Below, piece after piece: positions 5,659 to 16,061 of a DNA stretch of 26,569 bases. Source of the stretch: an uncultured Chthonomonadaceae bacterium (GTDB lineage: Bacteria; Armatimonadota; Chthonomonadetes; Chthonomonadales; Chthonomonadaceae); NCBI GenBank assembly GCA_964591025.1, contig CAZPZP010000001.1, forward strand, positions 1-26,569, in the 5' to 3' direction. Every line of letters starts with the position of its first letter. Position 1 is the first letter of the stretch. Both the position numbers and the translations under genes were made by a program. The notes under the pieces were generated by a model. It had not been told where the DNA came from, searched no databases, and saw only the letters and a program-made list of their open reading frames with translations.

Positions 5659-6861
5659 TCAACTTTTCCGTCCCTTCGCAGACGCACTCACAAAAAATTT
5701 CTCTTGGTTCGATGATTTTGACGCCGTGTTTTGCGCGATTGTTCCCGTCGCAGGGCGAATAATTGCTGTCGCTTCTTTGACGGGCGGCAGGGCATAATTG
5801 ATATACGACGCCACGATTTTTTCACCGACAAATAGGGTTAAGAAGAAGCCCACTATCATAAACGGACCAAAGGGAATCGCACTCGTCGGCACAATCCATT
5901 CGTCTTGTTCGCGCTGTTGGATCGCGATTTCCTCTTTTTGTGCCGGATTGACGAAGGTCAGATAGAGATAATTCCACAGGTCGCCGAGCCAGAAACACCA
6001 CAACACTTCATACAGCTGACCACCAAATGTGCCTTCGCGCTCGAACGACAACGCTTCTTCGCTTTTTGATGAGTTCGCCAATTCGCCCGACTTTGCCAGC
6101 AATTCCGCGATTTTGCGTTCGCGAGATTTGATCAGCGGCACGCCGATAATAATCCCAGACAGGCACGCTCCCAAAACCCAAACGAGATGCAGACGCACCG
6201 GACTGTAAGCGGCGGGAACCACAAGCACCAACATCGCGCCCATGCCTCGCGCCAGCAGAACGTCGCCAAGCCCCATCGCCTCGACGCCCTTCCACAGCCA
6301 GCCGACAATCCGCACGCCCCCAAATATCGCCATTCCAATCAAGGCACCGAAGATCGAGCGCGGCATCCAACCCCAAAGCAGCTCGAACCCCGTCTCATGT
6401 GTGGCAATGCCATAAATATCGCGCACCAACGGGATCAGCGTTGCGAGGATATTCAGCGTGTCGGGTATCTCGAACCGCTCATAATCAATGAAAAACACGG
6501 GAACCATAACAGCCGTGAACGCGCAAAACGTCACGGCATTGGCGACGTTATCGCGAAAAAACAGCGTCATCGCGAGAAACAAAACGCCCGTCAACAACTC
6601 CACGCCGAAGTATCGCCACGAGATTTGCTGCTTACATCCTCGGCACTTCCGATCTAAGAGCAAAAAACTGAACAGCGGCACAAGGTCAAGAGCCGTCAGT
6701 CGCCGCTTGCAGTTCGGGCAGAACGACGACTTCGGCTTGTTGAGATTAAGTTCGGGGGTAGCAATCGGCAGACGATAGATCACGACGTTGAGAAAACTGC
6801 CGATACAGGTTCCCACAACAAATGCCGTTGCTACCCAAAACCAAAACGGAACGCCGCCCAT
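5659..6861 (-). CDS. pilD: Prepilin peptidase / N-methyltransferase (A24)
   Basis: GSFLNVVIYRLP, CPNC...CRGC Zn motifs, catalytic Asp in FFIDYE and MGLGD, IPFGPF. Start placed at ATG 6861 because of the GGAG upstream; upstream in-frame sequence is repeat DNA. Confidence 0.92.
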   Translation of the reverse strand: MGGVPFWFWVATAFVVGTCIGSFLNVVIYRLPIATPELNLNKPKSSFCPNCKRRLTALDLVPLFSFLLLDRKCRGCKQQISWRYFGVELLTGVLFLAMTLFFRDNVANAVTFCAFTAVMVPVFFIDYERFEIPDTLNILATLIPLVRDIYGIATHETGFELLWGWMPRSIFGALIGMAIFGGVRIVGWLWKGVEAMGLGDVLLARGMGAMLVLVVPAAYSPVRLHLVWVLGACLSGIIIGVPLIKSRERKIAELLAKSGELANSSKSEEALSFEREGTFGGQLYEVLWCFWLGDLWNYLYLTFVNPAQKEEIAIQQREQDEWIVPTSAIPFGPFMIVGFFLTLFVGEKIVASYINYALPPVKEATAIIRPATGTIAQNTASKSSNQEKFFVSASAKGRKS

Positions 6862-6873
6862 TCGCACTCCATA

Positions 6874-6913
6874 ATGGGTCGTTGGGGCGTTAGGTGATTG
6901 GGTCATTGGGCAA
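6874..6913. repeat. Degenerate 8-mer tandem array (TTRGGTCR-like) x5
   Basis: ATGGGTCG TTGGGGCG TTAGGTGA TTGGGTCA TTGGGCAA. Confidence 0.75.
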
Positions 6914-6936
6914 TGCAGACACAACAGAATAAACGC

Positions 6937-6975
6937 CTCTGCTCGGGGCGTTCCGCCGTGTCGTGCTTCGCACTC
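6937..6975 (+). repeat. REP-like dispersed repeat, copy A (39-bp core)
   Basis: CTCTGCTCGGGGCGTTCCGCCGTGTCGTGCTTCGCACTC matches the core of the copy at 25144-25182 at 36/39 positions; contains the GTGC-TTC-GCAC mini-hairpin. Confidence 0.8.
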
Positions 6976-7005
6976 AAGAATCAGTGCATACGAACGCCAG
7001 TGGAA

Positions 7006-7053
7006 TTGCCCAATAACCCAACGACCCAATTACCTAATGACCCAACGACCTAC
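7006..7053. repeat. Degenerate 8-mer tandem array (YGACCYAA-like) x6, inverted relative to 6874-6913
   Basis: TTGCCCAA TAACCCAA CGACCCAA TTACCTAA TGACCCAA CGACCTAC; overlaps the pilC stop codon. Confidence 0.75.
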
Positions 7054-8279
7054 TTCTCGTCGTCGCCGCCACTGAGGTTTTCGATAACCGCAACCATCGG
7101 GAGCATCAGCGAAATAACGATAAATCCGACACAAACTCCCAAGAAGACGATCATGACGGGTTCAATCGCGGCAGTCAGCGATTGCAGCTGCGATTCGACT
7201 TCGCCCTCATAGAACTCGGCGATCTTAGAGAGCATTTGATCGAGCGCACCGGACTCTTCGCCAATCGAGATCATGTGCACGACCATCGGCGGGAACATTT
7301 TGCTCTTTTCAAGCGGCTCGTTGATTCGGTCTCCCTCTCGAATGCGGGCGCGGGCGTTCATGATCGCTTCCGCAATGATCGAGTTGCCGACGGTGCCGGC
7401 GACTGTTTCCATCGCTTGCAGAATCGGAACGCCGGAGACAAGCAGAGTAGACAGGGTACGTGAGAACCGTGCCAGACAGATTTTGTGACCGAGTTTGCCG
7501 AAGACCGGAATCTTGAGTTTCAAGCGGTCAATAACGCGCCGCCCGACTCGCGTTGTCCCGAACAGTTTAATACTCCAAACGAGAACGGCGATTCCGATCA
7601 GTCCGATGTACCATTTGTTCTTGAGGAAGTCGCTGAAATCCATGAGAAATTGGGTCGGCGCGGGAAGTTCCTTGACGCCCAAATCCTTGAAGAGTTCGAT
7701 AAACTTCGGCACGATAAAGGTACACAGACCAAGAACGATCATTAAAGCGACAATAACGACGATGACCGGATAGGTCAACGCCGATTTGACCTTGCGCCGC
7801 AGTTCCATATCCTTTTCAAGGAAGTGGGACAAACGCTGCAAGGCTTCTTCCAGTACACCACCGACTTCGCCGGCGCGGATCAGACCGATAAACAGATTGT
7901 TGAAGACTTTGGGGTATTTCGCCATGGATTTCGAGAGCGTTTGTCCGCTTTCGACTTCCGTTTGGATTTCCCGCAGAATTCGCTTGAGTTTCGGGTTTGC
8001 CGTCTGCTCGCCGAGAACATCGAGAGCGCGGACAAGCGACACACCGGCATCGATCATCGTCGAGAACTGACGGCAGAAGATCGAGAGGTCGTTGAGTTTG
8101 ACTTTGCCCCAGCCGCCGCCCGCTTTATTCCTTTTCGTTACGCCCGTCTGCTTAACATCATTGACGGTAAAGCCCTGCTCTTGCAGTCGCTTTTTAAGAA
8201 TTTCCTGATTTTCGGCTTCCGACGTGCCGGTTCGCATAGCTCCAGTGGCGTCGCGTACTGTATATTGATAAACAGGCAT
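7050..8279 (-). CDS. pilC: Type IV pilus inner-membrane platform protein PilC (T2SS F family)
   Basis: LSIFCRQFSTMIDAGVSL, GLIRAGEVGGVLEEALQRL, KVKSALTYP, ARFSRTLSTLLVSGVPIL, MISIGEESGALDQML. Confidence 0.95.
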   Translation of the reverse strand: MPVYQYTVRDATGAMRTGTSEAENQEILKKRLQEQGFTVNDVKQTGVTKRNKAGGGWGKVKLNDLSIFCRQFSTMIDAGVSLVRALDVLGEQTANPKLKRILREIQTEVESGQTLSKSMAKYPKVFNNLFIGLIRAGEVGGVLEEALQRLSHFLEKDMELRRKVKSALTYPVIVVIVALMIVLGLCTFIVPKFIELFKDLGVKELPAPTQFLMDFSDFLKNKWYIGLIGIAVLVWSIKLFGTTRVGRRVIDRLKLKIPVFGKLGHKICLARFSRTLSTLLVSGVPILQAMETVAGTVGNSIIAEAIMNARARIREGDRINEPLEKSKMFPPMVVHMISIGEESGALDQMLSKIAEFYEGEVESQLQSLTAAIEPVMIVFLGVCVGFIVISLMLPMVAVIENLSGGDDEK

Positions 8280-8303: not shown

Positions 8304-9578
8304 TTATCGCCCCGAATAGCCCGGTTGTCCGGGTTGCGGCATAGTCACCGTCTTGATCATTTTTTCCAGTTCCGGCGGGTTCATAGCGCGGGTCATGGCT
8401 TCCTCAAACGAGATGATACCCCGTACATAGAGATCGCGCAAGCACTGATCCATCGTTTGCATTCCGACGTTGGCACTGGTCTGAATCATGGACGTGATCT
8501 GGTGCGCTTTGGCTTCACGGATCAGGTTGCGGATTGCCGGTGAAGCACGCATGATTTCCAACGCGCAGACGCGCCCCGGTTGATTGGCACGCGGGATCAA
8601 CTGCTGGCACAAAATCGCTTGCAGGTTGTTGGACAACTGAAGGCGAACCTGCTCCTGCTGACCGCCCGGAAACGAGTCGACGATACGCTCAACGGAGGTT
8701 GCCGCCGAGTTGGTATGCAAGGTCGCGAAGACAAGGTGACCTGTTTCTGCGGCGGAGACTGCCATTTGCATCGTCTCAAGGTCGCGCATTTCACCGATAA
8801 GGATCACGTCGGGGTCTTCACGGAGGGCAGCGCGGAGCGCGTTTTTAAACGATTTGGTATCCTGCCCGACTTCACGCTGATTGATGACGCTGAATTTGTG
8901 GTTGTGCAGATATTCAATCGGGTCTTCGATGGTGATGATATGCTTGCTCGTCTCGGTATTGATCTGGTTGATCATCGCGGCGAGTGTGGTGGATTTGCCC
9001 GATCCGGTGGGACCTGTGACAAGGACAAGACCACGCGGCAAATGAGTCAACTCTTCGAGGATCGGCGGCAGTCCCAACTCTTTGAGGGTGGGAATTTTCT
9101 GCGGAATCTGCCGAAACGCCATCGCACAGTTGCCTTTATCGCGAAACACGTTGACGCGGAACCGGGCGGTGCGGGCAAGTTGGTAGGAAAAGTCGAGTTC
9201 CATTTCCGTCTCGAAGCGTTGAATCTGCTCGTCGGTCAGAATATCGTAGATAAGGCGTTGGGAGTCTGTCCCCGAAACTTTCTCGAAGGCGAGCGGAATG
9301 AGTCCGCCGTCTACACGTACGATGGGCGGAATGCCGACTGCTATATGGAGGTCGGACGAGCCTTTATCGTGCATGGCGCGAAGCAAGTCGTCGAGGTGGG
9401 CATCGTCGAGTGGTGTCGGACGTGCCGAAGCGGTAGTCATTGTGACCGGCTGCACTCCAGCGGACTGCATTCCTGACTGCTGCATTGACGGCATCCCTCC
9501 CGGCATTCCGGGTGCGCCGGGATTTCCGGGCAGGGGCGGCATACCGGGCGGCTGAGTCGGAAATTGATTATTGGACAT
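8304..9578 (-). CDS. pilT: Type IV pilus retraction ATPase PilT, with Pro/Gly/Met-rich N-terminal extension
   Basis: SDLHIAVG, RFRVNVF, GPTGSGKSTT, TIEDPIE, ALREDPDVILIGEMRD, AAETGHLVFATLHT, MQTMDQ. Confidence 0.95.
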   Translation of the reverse strand: MSNNQFPTQPPGMPPLPGNPGAPGMPGGMPSMQQSGMQSAGVQPVTMTTASARPTPLDDAHLDDLLRAMHDKGSSDLHIAVGIPPIVRVDGGLIPLAFEKVSGTDSQRLIYDILTDEQIQRFETEMELDFSYQLARTARFRVNVFRDKGNCAMAFRQIPQKIPTLKELGLPPILEELTHLPRGLVLVTGPTGSGKSTTLAAMINQINTETSKHIITIEDPIEYLHNHKFSVINQREVGQDTKSFKNALRAALREDPDVILIGEMRDLETMQMAVSAAETGHLVFATLHTNSAATSVERIVDSFPGGQQEQVRLQLSNNLQAILCQQLIPRANQPGRVCALEIMRASPAIRNLIREAKAHQITSMIQTSANVGMQTMDQCLRDLYVRGIISFEEAMTRAMNPPELEKMIKTVTMPQPGQPGYSGR

Positions 9579-9697: not shown

Positions 9698-10510
9698 TTA
9701 TTCCGCCCTTTTGCCCTGCTTCAATCGCTCTAACTCGGCACGCAGTCGGACATTCTCCTCTTCCGCATTTCGCGCTCGTTCTGCTTCCGTATTTGCTCGC
9801 TCTATTGCGTCCAATCGAAGTTGCTGTTCGTCTTCGTAAGCCTGCCGAGTCGCTTCATAAGCCTGTCGAGTCGCTTCATAAGCCTGCCGAGTCGCTTCGT
9901 ATGCCTCCCGCGTCTCTTCCGGCGTTTTCAGAAATTCCCTTGTTTTCGGGTCGTAGAACCGGAAATCTTCCCCAATCATAACGAGAAACAGTTGAAGGTT
10001 CTGGCTGTATAGTCTGTCACCGTTTTCCAAAGGAATGGATTGATACTCGCCGCGCTCTAATCGAAAGCCCTGTAGTCGAGGATTGAGATAATCCCCTGTT
10101 GGGTCATAACGGAAATACTCATCTGCTTTCAGAACCTGCTCATACAGCGGAAATTTTACGTCATTATCATCGCCTTTAGTAGAATCCGATGTAAACTCGA
10201 ATATAACACTCGGTACAATGCCGTTTTCTGCCCACACTTTGTACGTCTTTCTCAGACGTTTCTCAACTCCGTAGACGACATAAACATCGGGCGACACAGA
10301 CTTCCTTGGATTGCCCTTGACATAATAAAGGAAATTGTTCGCTGCGACATAGACATGAGACTCGTCCCGGTAATAGGCTTGTAGGGTGAGCGTTGTCTTG
10401 GCACTCAGTTGAAAATGGACATCGCTTTCAGCTATTGGCTTACCATCTCCTTCCGGGTAATAAATTTCATCGGTTATCGTTTTCGCTTCAAGGAGCGGCG
10501 GCGGAGCCAT
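9698..10510 (-). CDS. Uma2 family (PD-(D/E)XK-like) putative endonuclease with coiled-coil tail
   Basis: YYPEGDGKPIAES..H, SPDVYVV, VIFEFTSDST, LYEQVL...EYFRYDP; tail with EATRQAY repeats. Confidence 0.88.
   Translation of the reverse strand: MAPPPLLEAKTITDEIYYPEGDGKPIAESDVHFQLSAKTTLTLQAYYRDESHVYVAANNFLYYVKGNPRKSVSPDVYVVYGVEKRLRKTYKVWAENGIVPSVIFEFTSDSTKGDDNDVKFPLYEQVLKADEYFRYDPTGDYLNPRLQGFRLERGEYQSIPLENGDRLYSQNLQLFLVMIGEDFRFYDPKTREFLKTPEETREAYEATRQAYEATRQAYEATRQAYEDEQQLRLDAIERANTEAERARNAEEENVRLRAELERLKQGKRAE
9832..9915. repeat. In-frame 21-bp tandem repeat x4 (three near-exact copies) encoding heptads
   Basis: CTTCRTAAGCCTGYCGAGTCG x3 plus one degenerate copy; encodes (E-A-T-R-Q-A-Y)n. Confidence 0.9.
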
Positions 10511-10551
10511 AATTCTCTCCTCATTCTCGTCAAAATGTCAATCTATACGGT

Positions 10552-11172
10552 TCAAGGCAAGAATATCTGTTCGGGCGTGCGGCGTTGCGGCTGATTGGCT
10601 TTAATGTTTTGTCCTGCCAACCGAACGGTTTCCTCAATGCGTTTTTGGCGTGTTTCAGGGCGTTTCGCGCTCTGTATCCAATACAGGATAACTTTCTTCG
10701 ATGACGGACTAAATTTCTCGAAATAGTTCCGTGCCGTCGCATTTTCGGCGAGGGCTTCCATTAAATCGGGCGGAACGATTAACTCTTCGATAGCATCGAG
10801 TACCGTCCATGTTCCATTTTGCTTGGCACGTTCGATTTTCGCCAGTCCGGGCGGCATCATCAATCCCTGCGCGATCAATACTTCGACGCGCCACTTGTTG
10901 ACTTTCGACCATGTGCTATTCGGCTTTCGCGGCGAAAATACCTGCTTGAAGCGAGTCGCATCCAGTGTATTGACCTTGCTGTCGATCCAAGCGAAGCACA
11001 ATGCCTCTTCAACCGCCTCGTCATAAGTTAATCGGCAGTTTCCCGCGCTGACTTTATCGTAGATGAGCCAAATCGGTGCGGTTTGAGTATGGTTTTCTGT
11101 GAGCCAGTTGCGCCATGCCTCGCGAGTGCCGGGATAAACGTGTTCCAGATCGTTTTCCGCTATAGTGATCAA
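10552..11172 (-). CDS. YdeI/OmpD-associated family protein
   Basis: AWRNWLTENH, YDEAVEEALCFAWID, FSPRKPNSTWSKVN, VPPDL..AL.EN..A...FE, WIQSAKRPETRQKRI. TTG start overlaps the upstream TGA. Confidence 0.88.
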   Translation of the reverse strand: MITIAENDLEHVYPGTREAWRNWLTENHTQTAPIWLIYDKVSAGNCRLTYDEAVEEALCFAWIDSKVNTLDATRFKQVFSPRKPNSTWSKVNKWRVEVLIAQGLMMPPGLAKIERAKQNGTWTVLDAIEELIVPPDLMEALAENATARNYFEKFSPSSKKVILYWIQSAKRPETRQKRIEETVRLAGQNIKANQPQRRTPEQIFLP

Positions 11173-12503
11173 CCCAGCAAATCCCCGCCGTAATCGGGAC
11201 TGAAAACGCGCAACGCTTCCTCTGGTGTTGTGACGTGGCTGGTCAATTTGATAACCAGATCATCGGAGAAAGTTTTCCAGCGACTCTGAAGCAATTTCTT
11301 GCGTAGAGGCAAGCCGTCATAATTCAGCAATGCCTCTACCGAATCGAATGATTTGTGCAGAAAATCGAAAACACCAACCCGTCCTAAATATCCGGTGTTG
11401 CGGCATTGTTCACAACCTCGCCCTCTCACCAGTGAAACCTTCTGCTCCGTGTTAGTCACGAGAAAACCAAAGCGGCGTAGATTAACGGCATCCTCCTCAT
11501 AATCCTCTTTGCAACGCGGGCAGACGCGCCGCACCAGTCGTTGCGCCAGCACACCGGAGACGCTCGAAGCCAAAACCGACGAGGAAATGCCCATATCGCG
11601 CAGACGAATCAACGCCGCCACAGAATCATTGGCACAGACAGATGCCAGTACAATTGTGCCGGAATGTGCCAAATCCAACGCCGCACGCCAAACATTCACA
11701 TCGGGAATCTGATCCAGCATTACAATACTGGGAGATTCGTAGCGCACTGCCGCAATCGCCTCTTCATAGGTTGAGCCCGCTTTCGGGTCAACTTGGACAA
11801 AGGCGACGCCACTGAGTTCATATTCCAAACGCTGACCAATGACGAAACTTGTCCGCTCGATGGTATTCATACGATTCAAGGCGTTAAACTGTGTTGTAGT
11901 TCGCCCGCTTCCCGTATGCCCCGCAAAAACAATCAATCCACCCGACTGAATCAATGCCTCCTCGAACATCCCTTGCGTTTCAGGCGTCATTCCCGATTTC
12001 GATAAACCAAGCAGTGCAGATACTTGTTTGCAAATGTGGAGAACAATTTTCTCGCCGTATTGTGTCGGCAAAAGATGCACACGCAACCGATAGTCCGTTT
12101 CCAAAAATTGAAAGGTGATCAAGCCTGATTGTGGAAGTGCGGTGCTTTCCGAAGGCAGCCCCATTATTTCTCTCAATCGAGCGATCAAAGGCTCTTGAAT
12201 GTACTGAGGAACGACTATTATTTCGTGTAAGATGCCGTCAACGCGATACCGAATGCGCGTATTGCGCTTGTCGGGTTCGATGTGAATATCGGAGGCACGC
12301 TCTTTGATCGCCGCTTGAATAATGGTATTGACTAAACGATTGATAGGCGGTTGTTCAATTTCATCATCAGCCATATCCTCGTCTTTGAAAGGGAATCCAT
12401 GCGTCGCAATCGCATTTTTCAATGCCCACGTTGTATCATCGTCGCTTTCAGATCGCGTGAGCCTTACTGAACTTTCTTGTTTTTTGCGCCACATCAACCG
12501 CAT
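11169..12503 (-). CDS. PilB/GspE-family paralog with degenerate ATPase motifs (probable pseudo-ATPase)
   Basis: Aligns along its length with the PilB at 13132-14919. Walker A GHTGSGRTT, no EDPVE, Walker B MLDQ, His boxes lost, CPRC/CEQC retained. ATG 12503 with GGAGG RBS. Confidence 0.85.
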   Translation of the reverse strand: MRLMWRKKQESSVRLTRSESDDDTTWALKNAIATHGFPFKDEDMADDEIEQPPINRLVNTIIQAAIKERASDIHIEPDKRNTRIRYRVDGILHEIIVVPQYIQEPLIARLREIMGLPSESTALPQSGLITFQFLETDYRLRVHLLPTQYGEKIVLHICKQVSALLGLSKSGMTPETQGMFEEALIQSGGLIVFAGHTGSGRTTTQFNALNRMNTIERTSFVIGQRLEYELSGVAFVQVDPKAGSTYEEAIAAVRYESPSIVMLDQIPDVNVWRAALDLAHSGTIVLASVCANDSVAALIRLRDMGISSSVLASSVSGVLAQRLVRRVCPRCKEDYEEDAVNLRRFGFLVTNTEQKVSLVRGRGCEQCRNTGYLGRVGVFDFLHKSFDSVEALLNYDGLPLRKKLLQSRWKTFSDDLVIKLTSHVTTPEEALRVFSPDYGGDLLG

Positions 12504-12536
12504 CGCGTCACCTCCGCACGAAGGCAAATCTTTTCA

Positions 12537-12797
12537 TCAGGCGGCTTGCTCTACAGCAGCAGACGATTCTGCCTGACGATATTTGTGGACGGCATACTTA
12601 CACATGGGAAATTTATTCGCAATATGATCAAGATGCTCTGAAAACTCTTGCGGAGTGCCGCGTAGTATCAAGGATACAAGATACTCTGCTTCATCCAATA
12701 GATTAGCAATATCCTTGGGATCGCGCCCCTCATATCCCATACTGCGTCCTGTGATGATCACCCATTGCAAGGCGTCAAGGGCGTTCTTTGAGTGCAT
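12537..12797 (-). CDS. Small hypothetical helical protein, candidate immunity protein
   Basis: AAGGAG upstream; overlaps the 3' end of the upstream ORF; about 86 aa with amphipathic helices; no recognised family. Confidence 0.6.
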   Translation of the reverse strand: MHSKNALDALQWVIITGRSMGYEGRDPKDIANLLDEAEYLVSLILRGTPQEFSEHLDHIANKFPMCKYAVHKYRQAESSAAVEQAA

Positions 12798-13122
12798 CAA
12801 TATCGTCTGCTCCTTCTACAATTACGTCTGTCAGCGGAATTCCTTTTACCCACTGACCGACTTTTATTGGGTCAACCTGAGTGCCATCAGAAGACACTCC
12901 TCGTTCCATAGAGCGAAAAACTTTACGCCAGCGGGCAAATCCTGAGCCTGATGCTTCGATGACAGGCTTCTCAGAGTACAGTTGATCAATGCTGATTGAT
13001 TGAGAACGAATTGGGACATCATTTTCCCAAACTTGTGCGGAAATCTCTTGATGCCCCAACTTTTCTGCTGCTTTCGCTCTGCGAACGCCGTCAATGATAG
13101 TGTATTTTTCGTCGGCTGACAT
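12775..13122 (-). CDS. Small ParB/Srx-like domain protein (motif order suggests circular permutation), candidate toxin domain
   Basis: YTIIDGVRRAKAAEKLG resembles the ParB IIDGxRRxxAxxxLG motif; starts 9 bp after the pilB stop. Confidence 0.6.
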   Translation of the reverse strand: MSADEKYTIIDGVRRAKAAEKLGHQEISAQVWENDVPIRSQSISIDQLYSEKPVIEASGSGFARWRKVFRSMERGVSSDGTQVDPIKVGQWVKGIPLTDVIVEGADDIDALKERP

Positions 13123-13131
13123 GGCTTCGGT

Positions 13132-14919
13132 TTAGTATCCAGCGGTAAAGACGACACGCATAACCTCTTCCGGTGTTGTCAGCCCTTCCAGAACCTTGAT
13201 CAAACCGTCCTCGCGCAACTCTTTCATGCCATGTACTTTTGCCGCCGCTTTGAGTTCGGTCAACGGGGCATTGCGGACGATCATATCTGCGAGTTCGCCG
13301 TTCAGAGTCATCAGCTCATAGAATCCAATACGTCCCTTGTAGCCCGTATTGCGGCACTGGTCACAGCCGCGTCCACGCGCCAGTTGAACCTTCTGATTTT
13401 CGTTCTCCGCTACAAACCCGAAACGTCGTAAGTTGCCCGCCTCTTCCTCATAGTACTCTTTGCAGTTAGTACAGATTTTACGTCCCAAACGCTGCGCCAT
13501 AATGCCGATACACGTCGCGGCGATAAGGAACCGCTCAACTCCCATGTCCGCCAACCGAATGGTTGCAGACGGCGCATCGTTGGTATGGAGCGTGGAAAGA
13601 ACAAGGTGACCCGTCAATGCCGCTTCGACCCCGATACTCGCCGTTTCAAGATCGCGCATCTCTCCAACCATGATAATGTCCGGGTCTTGGCGAAGGATTG
13701 AGCGCAATGCTCTTCCAAAGGTCAGCCCTGCTTTCGGGTTCATCTGCACCTGCGTGACACCCGAAAGTTGATATTCGACGGGGTCTTCGACGGTAACGAT
13801 ATTGCGCTCGATGGAGTTCAATCGGTTCAGGAGCGAATAGAGTGCCGTCGTCTTGCCGGAACCCGTTGGTCCCGTTGTCAAAATCATGCCGTTCGGCTGC
13901 TGCGAGAGTTCTTCCAGTTGCGACTGAACTTCGGGCGTCAAACCGAGTTTATTCATCCCGATCATGATGCTGCCCTTGTCCAGAATTCGCATAACGATTT
14001 TCTCGCCATGCAGACCGGGCAGACACGACACGCGCAGGTCATACTCTTTATTGTCGAATTTGACCGCGATACGTCCGTCCTGTGGAACGCGCCGCTCAGC
14101 GATATTCATTTCCGACATGATCTTGAAGCGGGCAATCATCGGAGCCTGAATATATTTGGGAACGACCATAGTTTCATGCAAAACGCCGTCCACACGATAC
14201 CGAATGCGGGTGTTGCGCTTGTCGGGTTCGATATGAATATCGGAGGCACGCTCTTTGATCGCCGCCTGAATGATGGTATTGGCGAGGCGGACAATGGGGG
14301 CGGACTCGACTTCTTTATCAACCACATCCTCATCCGTCTCTTTGGAGGCGTCGCCCTGCGAACCATACGATGCAATCGCCATGTTCAGAGAGGCTTTTGC
14401 GTCGGTATCCGCGATGTCGTCCCCGCCGCCCCCGCCCCGCATCGGATTCATTCCGGGCGAAGGTTTCTCGCCGCCAGCCTCTATTGTTGTTCCAGTATAG
14501 TATTTGCCGAGAGCGTCCTCGATTTGATCCGGTGCCGCGAGAACGCCGCGTACCGTACAGCGCGACACAAGGCGCAGATCGTCTACTGCCGCCATATTGC
14601 TGGTGTCCGACATTGCGACATAGAGGATATTGTTCTCTTTTTTGAGCGGCAGTACGTTGAGTCGTTTGACGACGTGTTCAGGAACAGCAGTGATCGCGTC
14701 CTGTGCAGGCTTGTAAACCGTCAAATCTACGAACGGGACGCCCATCTCCTGCGCCTTTGATTCGTAGACATCACGCGGATTGATTCCGACATTGATCAGG
14801 GCGTTGGCGAGATCGCCTCCGGTTGCCTGCTGCATTTTGCGGGATTCGTCGAGTTGTTCCTGCGAGGCATAGCCCTTTTCGAGCATATAATCGCCGATGT
14901 TTTTGCGTGCCATTACCAT
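13132..14919 (-). CDS. pilB: Type IV pilus assembly ATPase PilB
   Basis: ASDIHIEP, ERRVPQDGR, GPTGSGKTT, TVEDPVE, LRQDPDIIMVGEMRD, TGHLVLSTLHTND, CTNC/CDQC Zn site, TTPEEV; MshEN-like N-terminus. Confidence 0.95.
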   Translation of the reverse strand: MVMARKNIGDYMLEKGYASQEQLDESRKMQQATGGDLANALINVGINPRDVYESKAQEMGVPFVDLTVYKPAQDAITAVPEHVVKRLNVLPLKKENNILYVAMSDTSNMAAVDDLRLVSRCTVRGVLAAPDQIEDALGKYYTGTTIEAGGEKPSPGMNPMRGGGGGDDIADTDAKASLNMAIASYGSQGDASKETDEDVVDKEVESAPIVRLANTIIQAAIKERASDIHIEPDKRNTRIRYRVDGVLHETMVVPKYIQAPMIARFKIMSEMNIAERRVPQDGRIAVKFDNKEYDLRVSCLPGLHGEKIVMRILDKGSIMIGMNKLGLTPEVQSQLEELSQQPNGMILTTGPTGSGKTTALYSLLNRLNSIERNIVTVEDPVEYQLSGVTQVQMNPKAGLTFGRALRSILRQDPDIIMVGEMRDLETASIGVEAALTGHLVLSTLHTNDAPSATIRLADMGVERFLIAATCIGIMAQRLGRKICTNCKEYYEEEAGNLRRFGFVAENENQKVQLARGRGCDQCRNTGYKGRIGFYELMTLNGELADMIVRNAPLTELKAAAKVHGMKELREDGLIKVLEGLTTPEEVMRVVFTAGY

Positions 14920-15146: not shown

Positions 15147-16061
15147 TTATTGCGCCAGTCCTTGCAAGACCGCCGCTTCCATCACATCGGTTGGCGGAAA
15201 GTGTCCTGTCCACCGCTCGAATGCCAACGCTCCTTGATAAACAAGCATTTTTATGCCGTCCATCGTCTTGCAGCCGCGCCGTTTCGCTTCTTGCAATAGG
15301 CGGGTTTCGACAGGATTGTAAACGAGATCATAAACCGTCAATTCTGGGCGAAACGCTTCTAAAATCACGGGCGGCAATGCGTCCTCATTCGGATGCATTC
15401 CAACCCGCGTCGTATTAACCAGCAGTGTTGCCCTTGCCGTCGCCGTGTAATATTCTGCGGTATTGTCGAGCGAGAGGGTGCGAATAACAGCCGCGAACCC
15501 CGCGTCACGTACTGTCTGTGCCAGACGTTCGGCGCGTTCAAGTGTGCGATTGATCAGAACCACTTCGGCTCCTTCGCGCACCAAGCAGAAGACTACAGAT
15601 CGCGCCGCCCCACCCGCGCCCAAAACCACCACACTCTTGCCAGAAACCGAGAATCCCTGTTCGCGCAAGGGCAGAAAAAAGCCGCGCCCATCGGTATTGT
15701 CACCGATAAGTTTGCCCCCGATGCAATGGACGGTATTGACCGCACCCACATCGCGAGCCTCGTCGGTGATCTCCTCCAAAAAGGGCAGGACGTTCTCTTT
15801 GTGCGGAATCGTCAGGTTGACGCCGACGATTCCAAGCGCGGGAAGACTGCGGATAGCCGTCCCCAAGTTCTCCGGCGATACCGCAAAGGGTAAATAAATG
15901 TATGATAGCCCAAGTGCCGCAATCGCGGAATTGTGCATCGCCGGGGAGAGGCTGTGTTCGACGGGGAAGCCGAACACGCCGAGTATTTTTGTTTTGCCAT
16001 GAACGGGAGGCAGTTTGCCCGCAATACCTTGTGATACGATCACGTCGAAATCCGTCCCCAT
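15147..16061 (-). CDS. aroE: Shikimate dehydrogenase
   Basis: HSLSPAMHN, GVNLTIPHKE, GAVNT, GDNTDGRGF, GAGGAAR, NTTRVGM, DLVYNP, MLVYQGALAFERWTG. Confidence 0.96.
   Translation of the reverse strand: MGTDFDVIVSQGIAGKLPPVHGKTKILGVFGFPVEHSLSPAMHNSAIAALGLSYIYLPFAVSPENLGTAIRSLPALGIVGVNLTIPHKENVLPFLEEITDEARDVGAVNTVHCIGGKLIGDNTDGRGFFLPLREQGFSVSGKSVVVLGAGGAARSVVFCLVREGAEVVLINRTLERAERLAQTVRDAGFAAVIRTLSLDNTAEYYTATARATLLVNTTRVGMHPNEDALPPVILEAFRPELTVYDLVYNPVETRLLQEAKRRGCKTMDGIKMLVYQGALAFERWTGHFPPTDVMEAAVLQGLAQ

Follow-up and report, generated by a model that had tools for sequence, protein, structure and literature searches.

Why would a bacterium keep, in its type IV pilus operon and just behind the gene for the extension motor PilB, a second PilB-like gene whose product appears to lack the residues for ATP hydrolysis? 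The question is raised by a 26,569-nt stretch of DNA from an uncultured Chthonomonadaceae bacterium (phylum Armatimonadota; assembly GCA_964591025.1, contig CAZPZP010000001.1, positions 1-26,569), which in its whole length we call the window. An intact pilB (13132-14919, minus strand; 595 amino acids, MshEN and T2SSE domains, all motifs present) lies there directly upstream, in the same operon, of a shorter paralog (11169-12503, minus strand; 444 amino acids plus stop), hereafter the dead copy. Comparison of sequences suggests that the dead copy encodes a catalytically dead PilB paralog without the N1D, and that this protein, without being a motor itself, probably regulates the pilus machine or is one of its structural partners.

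A PilB paralog without the catalytic residues

Open reading frame (ORF) translation, Pfam, BLASTP, and AlphaFold2 modeling followed by Foldseek together describe the product as an N2D, a degenerate ATPase C-terminal domain (CTD), and a zinc finger. BLASTP aligns it to the neighboring PilB at 46% identity over 426 residues, beginning at PilB residue 170, and Pfam detects T2SSE alone (PF00437, 253.8 bits, profile positions 4-369 of 370), with no match to MshEN (PF05157), which the neighboring PilB carries at residues 59-143. Only about 50 residues stand ahead of the N2D. An earlier interpretation made from the letters of this DNA (the sequence-only reading) had claimed that the MshEN-like N-domain is missing, and both searches agree with it. 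Scores against the NCBIfam models for PilB (TIGR02538, 293.3 bits, cut-off 675.65) and GspE (TIGR02533, 315.4 bits, cut-off 630.25) fall below the equivalog level. The AlphaFold2 model, built from a 71-sequence alignment, has a predicted local distance difference test score (pLDDT) of 88.6, its best Foldseek matches are the PilB/PilF cores 5tsh, 5oiu, and 5it5 (template modeling score, TM, 0.84-0.89), and by this prediction the dead copy is folded as a PilB core.

The reading frame is open as far 5' as a TTG at 12527. We take the ATG at 12503 as the right start because a GGAGG ribosome-binding site lies 7 nt upstream of it (12511-12515, minus strand, read directly from the sequence) and because the resulting N-terminus, MRLMWRK, recurs in orthologs. 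The 444-codon frame and its ribosome-binding site are as first described, with the correction that the ORF lies on the minus strand.

Residues were mapped to G. metallireducens PilB (PilB-Gm) by aligning the window PilB to 5tsg (chain offset 20), with roles taken from McCallum 2017 (PMC5424180). Relative to the neighboring PilB, the Walker A motif GPTGSGKTT has become GHTGSGRTT (11895-11921), which replaces the lysine by arginine; the Asp box TVEDPVE has become VIGQRLE, so that the EDP is gone (E353 and D354 to Gly and Gln); the Walker B motif MVGEMRD has become MLDQIPD (in the remnant IVMLDQIPD, 11700-11726), which replaces the catalytic glutamate E395 by glutamine; and the His box GHLVLSTLH has become GTIVLASVC (in the remnant GTIVLASVCAND, 11625-11660), with H413 changed to Thr and H420 to Cys, all of these remnants lying on the minus strand. 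The arginine finger R286 is replaced by histidine (IVMRI to IVLHI), R257 by leucine, and the pore residue E400 by asparagine. All six motif substitutions named in the sequence-only reading, including that of ERRVPQDGR by STALPQSGL, can be seen in the translations and the BLASTP alignment. The positions of the Walker A lysine, catalytic glutamate, His-box histidines, and R286 show almost no variation among the PilT-like ATPases and have roles in catalysis and inter-chain coupling (PMC5424180). Four positions (E420, H438, H445, and D379 in P0002 numbering) are invariant in 26 PilBs and three other paralogs, and are changed in 11/11 dead copies. By these substitutions, the residues for ATP hydrolysis and inter-subunit coupling are lost in the dead copy.

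The claim that every catalytic motif has been replaced holds for the hydrolysis and coupling residues and goes too far for the rest of the site: the P-loop frame GxxGxG(R)T, including the threonine after the lysine position, the equivalent of the Mg-coordinating E357 in the Asp box, and the arginine finger R271 (YRLRV) are all still present. The inter-chain arginine R455 of PilB-Gm is present as well, as are the stretch NLRRFGF...RGRGCEQCRNTGY and both CxxC pairs, which had been pointed out before. The two pairs make up a tetracysteine zinc-finger region (11403-11522, minus strand; C328, C331, C364, and C367) that is invariant in all dead copies, and such a zinc motif is specific to the PilB/GspE clade (McCallum 2017, PMC5424180). 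The protein would therefore classify as a pseudo-ATPase, a clear homolog of an active enzyme without catalytic residues, and is predicted to be unable to serve as a motor.

Orthologs and distribution

Within the family Chthonomonadaceae, 9 of 42 genomes and 6 of 23 genera have positional orthologs of the dead copy, which lie between pilB and pilT and always just 3' of pilB; no short second PilB-like frame downstream of pilB was found in 16 genomes sampled from two sister families. Closer orthologs came from metagenomes (P0004, 64%; P0005, 60%; P0006, 48%), all three being like the window copy in N-terminus, motif degeneration, and gene order. When 1.84 billion representative proteins were searched with a profile, short PilB-like proteins (440-520 amino acids) with degenerate sites turned up in about 20 additional clusters at 50% identity, again from metagenomes. 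Context was retrieved for four cluster members, three of which stand in the pil operon just 5' of pilT-pilC-pilD and the fourth, P0250, elsewhere; the contigs of P0252 and P0246 carry ruvX-yceG-HAD-aroE-pilB directly upstream of the dead gene, and that of P0254 begins at the dead gene. Frames are intact in all of the at least 32 members found, across genera, and the window protein occurs in seven independent metagenome contigs with DNA identical in all. A search for orthologs with like degeneration had been proposed as a check on the sequence-only reading; it returned intact positional orthologs in six genera and these metagenomic clusters.

The 11 tandem copies are uniform at the diagnostic sites: the catalytic glutamate, both His-box histidines, and the Asp-box aspartate are lost in 11/11, and the four cysteines and R480 (the equivalent of PilB-Gm R455) are kept in 11/11. 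In the wider family (n=32), the Walker A lysine is kept in 16/32, and the catalytic glutamate is kept in 6/32 and lost in 26/32. Replacements at the catalytic positions are heterogeneous over the 32 members, with few dead-specific conserved residues in the core, and this looks like released constraint rather than a new catalytic solution.

Some members of the dead clade are less degenerate (L055:3003-4466 in G054, P0249, P0255, P0263, and P0265), keeping the Walker A lysine and sometimes the catalytic glutamate or one histidine; judged by their motifs, they look like intermediate states of decommissioning. One protein, P0241 (664 amino acids, on a 3.1-kb ENA contig), consists of an MshEN N-domain followed by a dead core that is almost the same as those of the G023/G001 dead copies; it may have arisen by true recombination between PilB and a dead copy, or be a chimera produced when the contig was assembled across a conversion tract. 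About 14 of the best 25 representatives (within P0231-P0245) are chains of about 1000 amino acids with two complete PilB-like ATPase cores. We rejected these as fusions of PilB with a dead copy, as the Walker A, Asp, Walker B, and His boxes are intact in both halves; because they hold two intact cores, covalent tandem PilB cores do exist in other lineages.

Selection on the dead copies

Ratios of non-synonymous to synonymous substitution (dN/dS) were estimated by the Nei-Gojobori method. The window copy compared with P0004 gives 0.22 (dN 0.27, dS 1.19), and other orthologous dead pairs give 0.16-0.22, well under 1, compared with 0.08 for PilB and 0.06-0.07 for PilT. Within the degenerate core, the least saturated dead pairs (window/L046 and G045/G046) have dN/dS of 0.16-0.18, and the PilB core in the same genome pairs 0.02-0.03. 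By these ratios, the dead copy is held under purifying selection and is not a decaying duplicate. The earlier claim that its divergence is not random decay is supported both by ratios this low, even in the degenerate core, and by the intact orthologs across six genera and the metagenomic clusters. The accompanying claim of a selective loss of catalysis holds only to a moderate degree: 36-61% of ATP-site invariants are kept in dead copies, compared with 57-70% of other PilB invariants, but the whole protein has changed, with non-synonymous change 7-20 times faster than in PilB.

The dS of the dead copies is about twice the PilB dS in the same genome pairs, and in the pair G046/L058 it is saturated against a PilB dS of 0.40, which points to weaker constraint on the codons of the dead gene or to a much faster turnover.

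Origin by duplication

In the full-length tree, 10 of the 11 dead copies fall in one clade, the exception being that of G011, which stands beside its own PilB. The last 127 codons of this copy are 98% identical in DNA to its own PilB, and once that conversion tract was masked the grouping was gone; this placement was rejected. With the G011 and window tracts masked, all 11 dead copies form one clade (SH-aLRT 98), and a tree on ATPase-core columns only places 31/32 dead sequences together and all PilBs in a clade of their own. Because the masked and core trees group the dead copies, and because their position between pilB and pilT is fixed, the data support the view that pilB was duplicated in tandem once, long ago, in Chthonomonadaceae-like Armatimonadota. 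The trees differ on its timing, the full-length tree nesting the dead clade inside family-f1 PilBs and the core-only tree placing it outside all sampled PilBs, a conflict of which long branches are a likely cause.

Gene conversion with the resident pilB

The tract in the window copy lies at 12246-12335 (minus strand), where residues 57-86 of the dead copy correspond to residues 212-241 of PilB. Nucleotide identity with the resident pilB is 91% and third-position identity 0.80-0.87, compared with about 0.35 elsewhere in the gene pair. DNA tracts 85-98% identical to the genome's own PilB were found in 9 of the 11 PilB/dead pairs. The 17 tracts all fall in two parts of PilB, residues 168-269 (the linker and the N2D's first half) and residues 468-594 (the zinc finger and C-terminal helices); in none of the 11 pairs does a tract lie in residues 270-467, where the arginine fingers and the Walker A, Asp, Walker B, and His boxes are. 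For at least five lineages (window, G011, G021, G054, and L059), the dead copy's tract clearly resembles the PilB of its own genome more than it does any other PilB, and more than the PilBs resemble one another; these are real conversions and not merely conserved sequence. The main inter-chain contact in PilB hexamers is that of the N2D with the neighbor's CTD (PMC5424180), and a subunit that co-assembles with the resident PilB would need an N2D that stays matched to it.

Small ORFs linked to the dead copy

Between pilB and the dead copy, the window holds two overlapping ORFs on the minus strand, here called orf115 (12775-13122, 115 amino acids) and orf86 (12537-12797, 86 amino acids). Neither has a significant family match, the N-terminus of orf115 being weakly ParB_N-like. 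As in the window, homologs of orf86, and often of orf115, adjoin the dead copy in L046, L047, G021, L058, G014, and G045, and the pair also stands just 5' of pilT at a contig start in G051. The overlapping pair was located at 12537-13122 (minus strand) in the window and at L041:6772-7688, L058:7393-7984, L046:7369-7959, L047:516-1149, and L061:437-971, standing upstream or downstream of dead pilB in several genera. Within the family, orf86 was encountered in 5 of 42 genomes, and there in pilB-pilT intervals only; it is found in none of the genomes shown to lack the dead copy, and it adjoins the dead copy wherever the full interval is on the contig. This confinement makes a free-standing toxin-immunity cassette less plausible and speaks for a connection with the pilus locus. 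The small ORFs were not seen at the dead-copy loci of G001, G011, G054, G046, and L059, and the pair would thus seem to be a frequent, not an obligatory, companion of dead PilB.

Possible roles and alternative explanations

With moderate confidence, we propose that the dead copy functions by binding proteins of the pilus motor or platform. Most likely, it would enter or cap PilB rings via the N2D/CTD packing interface; alternatively, it could compete for the PilC/PilM platform, and by either route pilus extension would be tuned without the dead copy being a motor. The sequence-only reading had suggested co-assembly with PilB or binding to PilC; the retained inter-chain arginine and zinc finger, the place in the operon, and the repeated gene conversion with the resident PilB in the N2D and C-terminal parts only are indirect support for this. 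The combination found in the window copy, lysine to arginine and glutamate to glutamine with the Mg-binding glutamate kept, would suit a subunit that binds ATP without hydrolyzing it. PilB-type motors are thought to be homohexamers with a coordinated two-fold symmetric ATP cycle, and a dead subunit in the ring would interrupt this sequential cycle, pacing the motor or exerting a natural dominant-negative effect. In these ATPases each chain forms its ATP site between its own N2D and CTD, the arginine fingers acting in cis, and on that arrangement the losses in a dead subunit would disable only its own site. The effect could be that of a brake or of a scaffold or adaptor. A more speculative extension, for which we see only a small chance, is that the native extension motor is a mixed ring of active PilB and dead subunits (for example 3:3, like F1 alpha3beta3), in which conversion would keep the contact surfaces matched and selection would keep the core dead, the dead subunit, perhaps ATP-bound, would set stepping or gating, and orf115 and orf86 would control entry into the ring.

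Several observations weigh against contact with the motor or platform as the function, or against the evidence for it. The distribution is patchy, 33 of the 42 family genomes being without a dead copy, so the gene is dispensable. A few members of the wider family (6/32) keep the Walker A lysine and the catalytic glutamate and might retain some activity. The rapid non-synonymous change means that interfaces may have drifted too, and 30-43% of the non-catalytic PilB invariants have been lost in dead copies. That conversion tracts are restricted to the flanks could simply follow from the need of recombination for sequence identity, which the diverged core has lost, rather than from selection on an interface, and the dead copies might look more monophyletic than they are through long-branch attraction. 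The linked small ORFs, finally, hint at a function that is not centered on PilB.

This last point is the basis of an alternative in which the dead copy works mainly with orf115 (ParB/Srx-like) and orf86 as a separate accessory module in the pil operon, a sensor, regulator, or exclusion device, with the PilB-like fold as a binding platform outside PilB rings. The repeated adjacency of the small ORFs to the dead copy, the confinement of orf86 to pilB-pilT intervals, and a GC content of the dead-pilB/small-ORF cassette slightly below that of its flanks all fit such a module, but five dead-copy loci do without the ORFs, the small proteins lack any significant family match, and the genomes are related, so that co-occurrence counts are not independent; we regard this account as unlikely, if with a real chance of being right. 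That the dead copy is still a weak or unconventional ATPase, or a switch driven by nucleoside triphosphates, we think distinctly improbable: the P-loop frame with its threonine, E357, and R271 survive in the window copy and the lysine or glutamate in part of the wider family, but the window copy has changed the lysine, the catalytic glutamate, both histidines, and R286, all at essentially invariant sites (PMC5424180), and the heterogeneous replacements have the look of released constraint. A functionless duplicate in the course of pseudogenization would account for the fast non-synonymous change, the patchy distribution, the slightly lower GC content, and the higher dS; it would not account for intact frames across genera, for dN/dS far under 1 even in the degenerate core, for the conserved start, ribosome-binding site, and N-terminal motif, or for identical DNA in independent metagenome contigs, and this very improbable explanation is already close to refuted.

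Comparison with known systems

The PilB/GspE-clade ATPases (PilB-Gm 5TSG/5TSH, T. thermophilus PilF, and V. cholerae EpsE) resemble the dead copy in the N2D and CTD fold, the zinc motif, and the inter-chain arginine, and differ from it in having the N1D/MshEN, the Walker A lysine, the catalytic glutamate, the His-box histidines, R286, and the EDP. Rings that mix active and non-catalytic paralogs occur elsewhere, as in the hexameric F1 alpha3beta3 and, with its delta-prime subunit, the clamp loader. In these cases as in ours, a P-loop subunit was duplicated and one copy lost catalysis; in F1 and the clamp loader that copy stays in the assembly, whereas the dead PilB is known here from its sequence. 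We know of no heteromeric ring with a dead paralog described for the PilB family. For the retraction motors PilT and PilU, an engineered ATPase-dead PilT reportedly still supports PilU-driven retraction, a precedent for a hydrolysis-dead PilT-like ATPase as an adaptor on the pilus platform. That pair differs from ours in being made of retraction motors and laboratory mutants, whereas the dead copy is a natural, long-conserved paralog of the extension motor.

ArlH/FlaH, a KaiC/RecA-like protein, reportedly binds ATP without hydrolysis and binds the PilB-like archaellum motor ArlI/FlaI (PMC5019145). Like ArlH, the dead copy is a P-loop protein, predicted to be non-hydrolyzing, encoded beside a PilB-family motor, and ArlH has been proposed to modulate its motor by nucleotide-dependent binding; unlike the dead copy, ArlH is not a motor paralog, whereas a direct duplicate of PilB could take PilB's place in the ring. 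Cofactors and inhibitors of PilB such as PilZ-FimX and the phage proteins Tip and Aqs1 (review PMC11656802) are modulators of PilB-driven extension, as proposed for the dead copy, with folds unrelated to it. No description of a dead PilB paralog was found in the literature searched, and in the text consulted of this 2024 PilB-cofactor review neither such a paralog nor the word "heterohexamer" appears.

What is particular to the present case is the tandem pairing with an intact PilB in a canonical operon, the loss of the N1D, and concerted evolution restricted to the flanks; what is new is the confinement of conversion tracts to the N2D and C-terminal flanks and the small-ORF pair that often accompanies the dead gene. 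If our proposal is true, the dead copies would be an unrecognized, built-in class of regulators of pilus extension, a genome-encoded dominant-negative or adaptor subunit, or would make heteromeric rings in the PilB ATPase family. They also offer a clean evolutionary case, in which the catalytic core of a tandem duplicate is free to diverge while the flanks are homogenized again and again with the active copy. Dead copies are currently annotated as an ordinary "ATPase, T2SS/T4P/T4SS family" protein or as PilB, and pilus motors are overcounted as a result.

Operon context and minor observations

The remaining genes of the type IV pilus operon in the window, all on the minus strand, are aroE (15147-16061) upstream of pilB and, downstream of the dead copy, pilT (8304-9578), pilC (7050-8279), and pilD (5659-7029), the last three recognized by Pfam. 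Gene spacing is tight across the operon, and a simple scan found no convincing terminator in the interval from pilB to the dead copy. Between the dead copy and pilT stand a DUF8412/OmdA (YdeI-like) gene identified by Pfam (10552-11172, minus strand), which overlaps the stop of the dead copy, and a gene for a Uma2-family protein, a putative endonuclease (9698-10510, minus strand). The OmdA gene is conserved at this place only in the closest orthologous loci (L046 and L047). The GC content of 9800-13000 (0.47-0.50) is slightly below that of the flanks.

The N-terminus of the intact PilB has a sub-threshold match to the MshE-type cyclic di-GMP (c-di-GMP)-binding motif model NF053729 (26 bits, cut-off 38), and this PilB may therefore be responsive to c-di-GMP; the domain concerned is wholly absent from the dead copy. 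The same genome encodes another short PilB-family paralog (G000:C911:306-1421, a 445-amino-acid frame), which is 27% identical to the dead copy.

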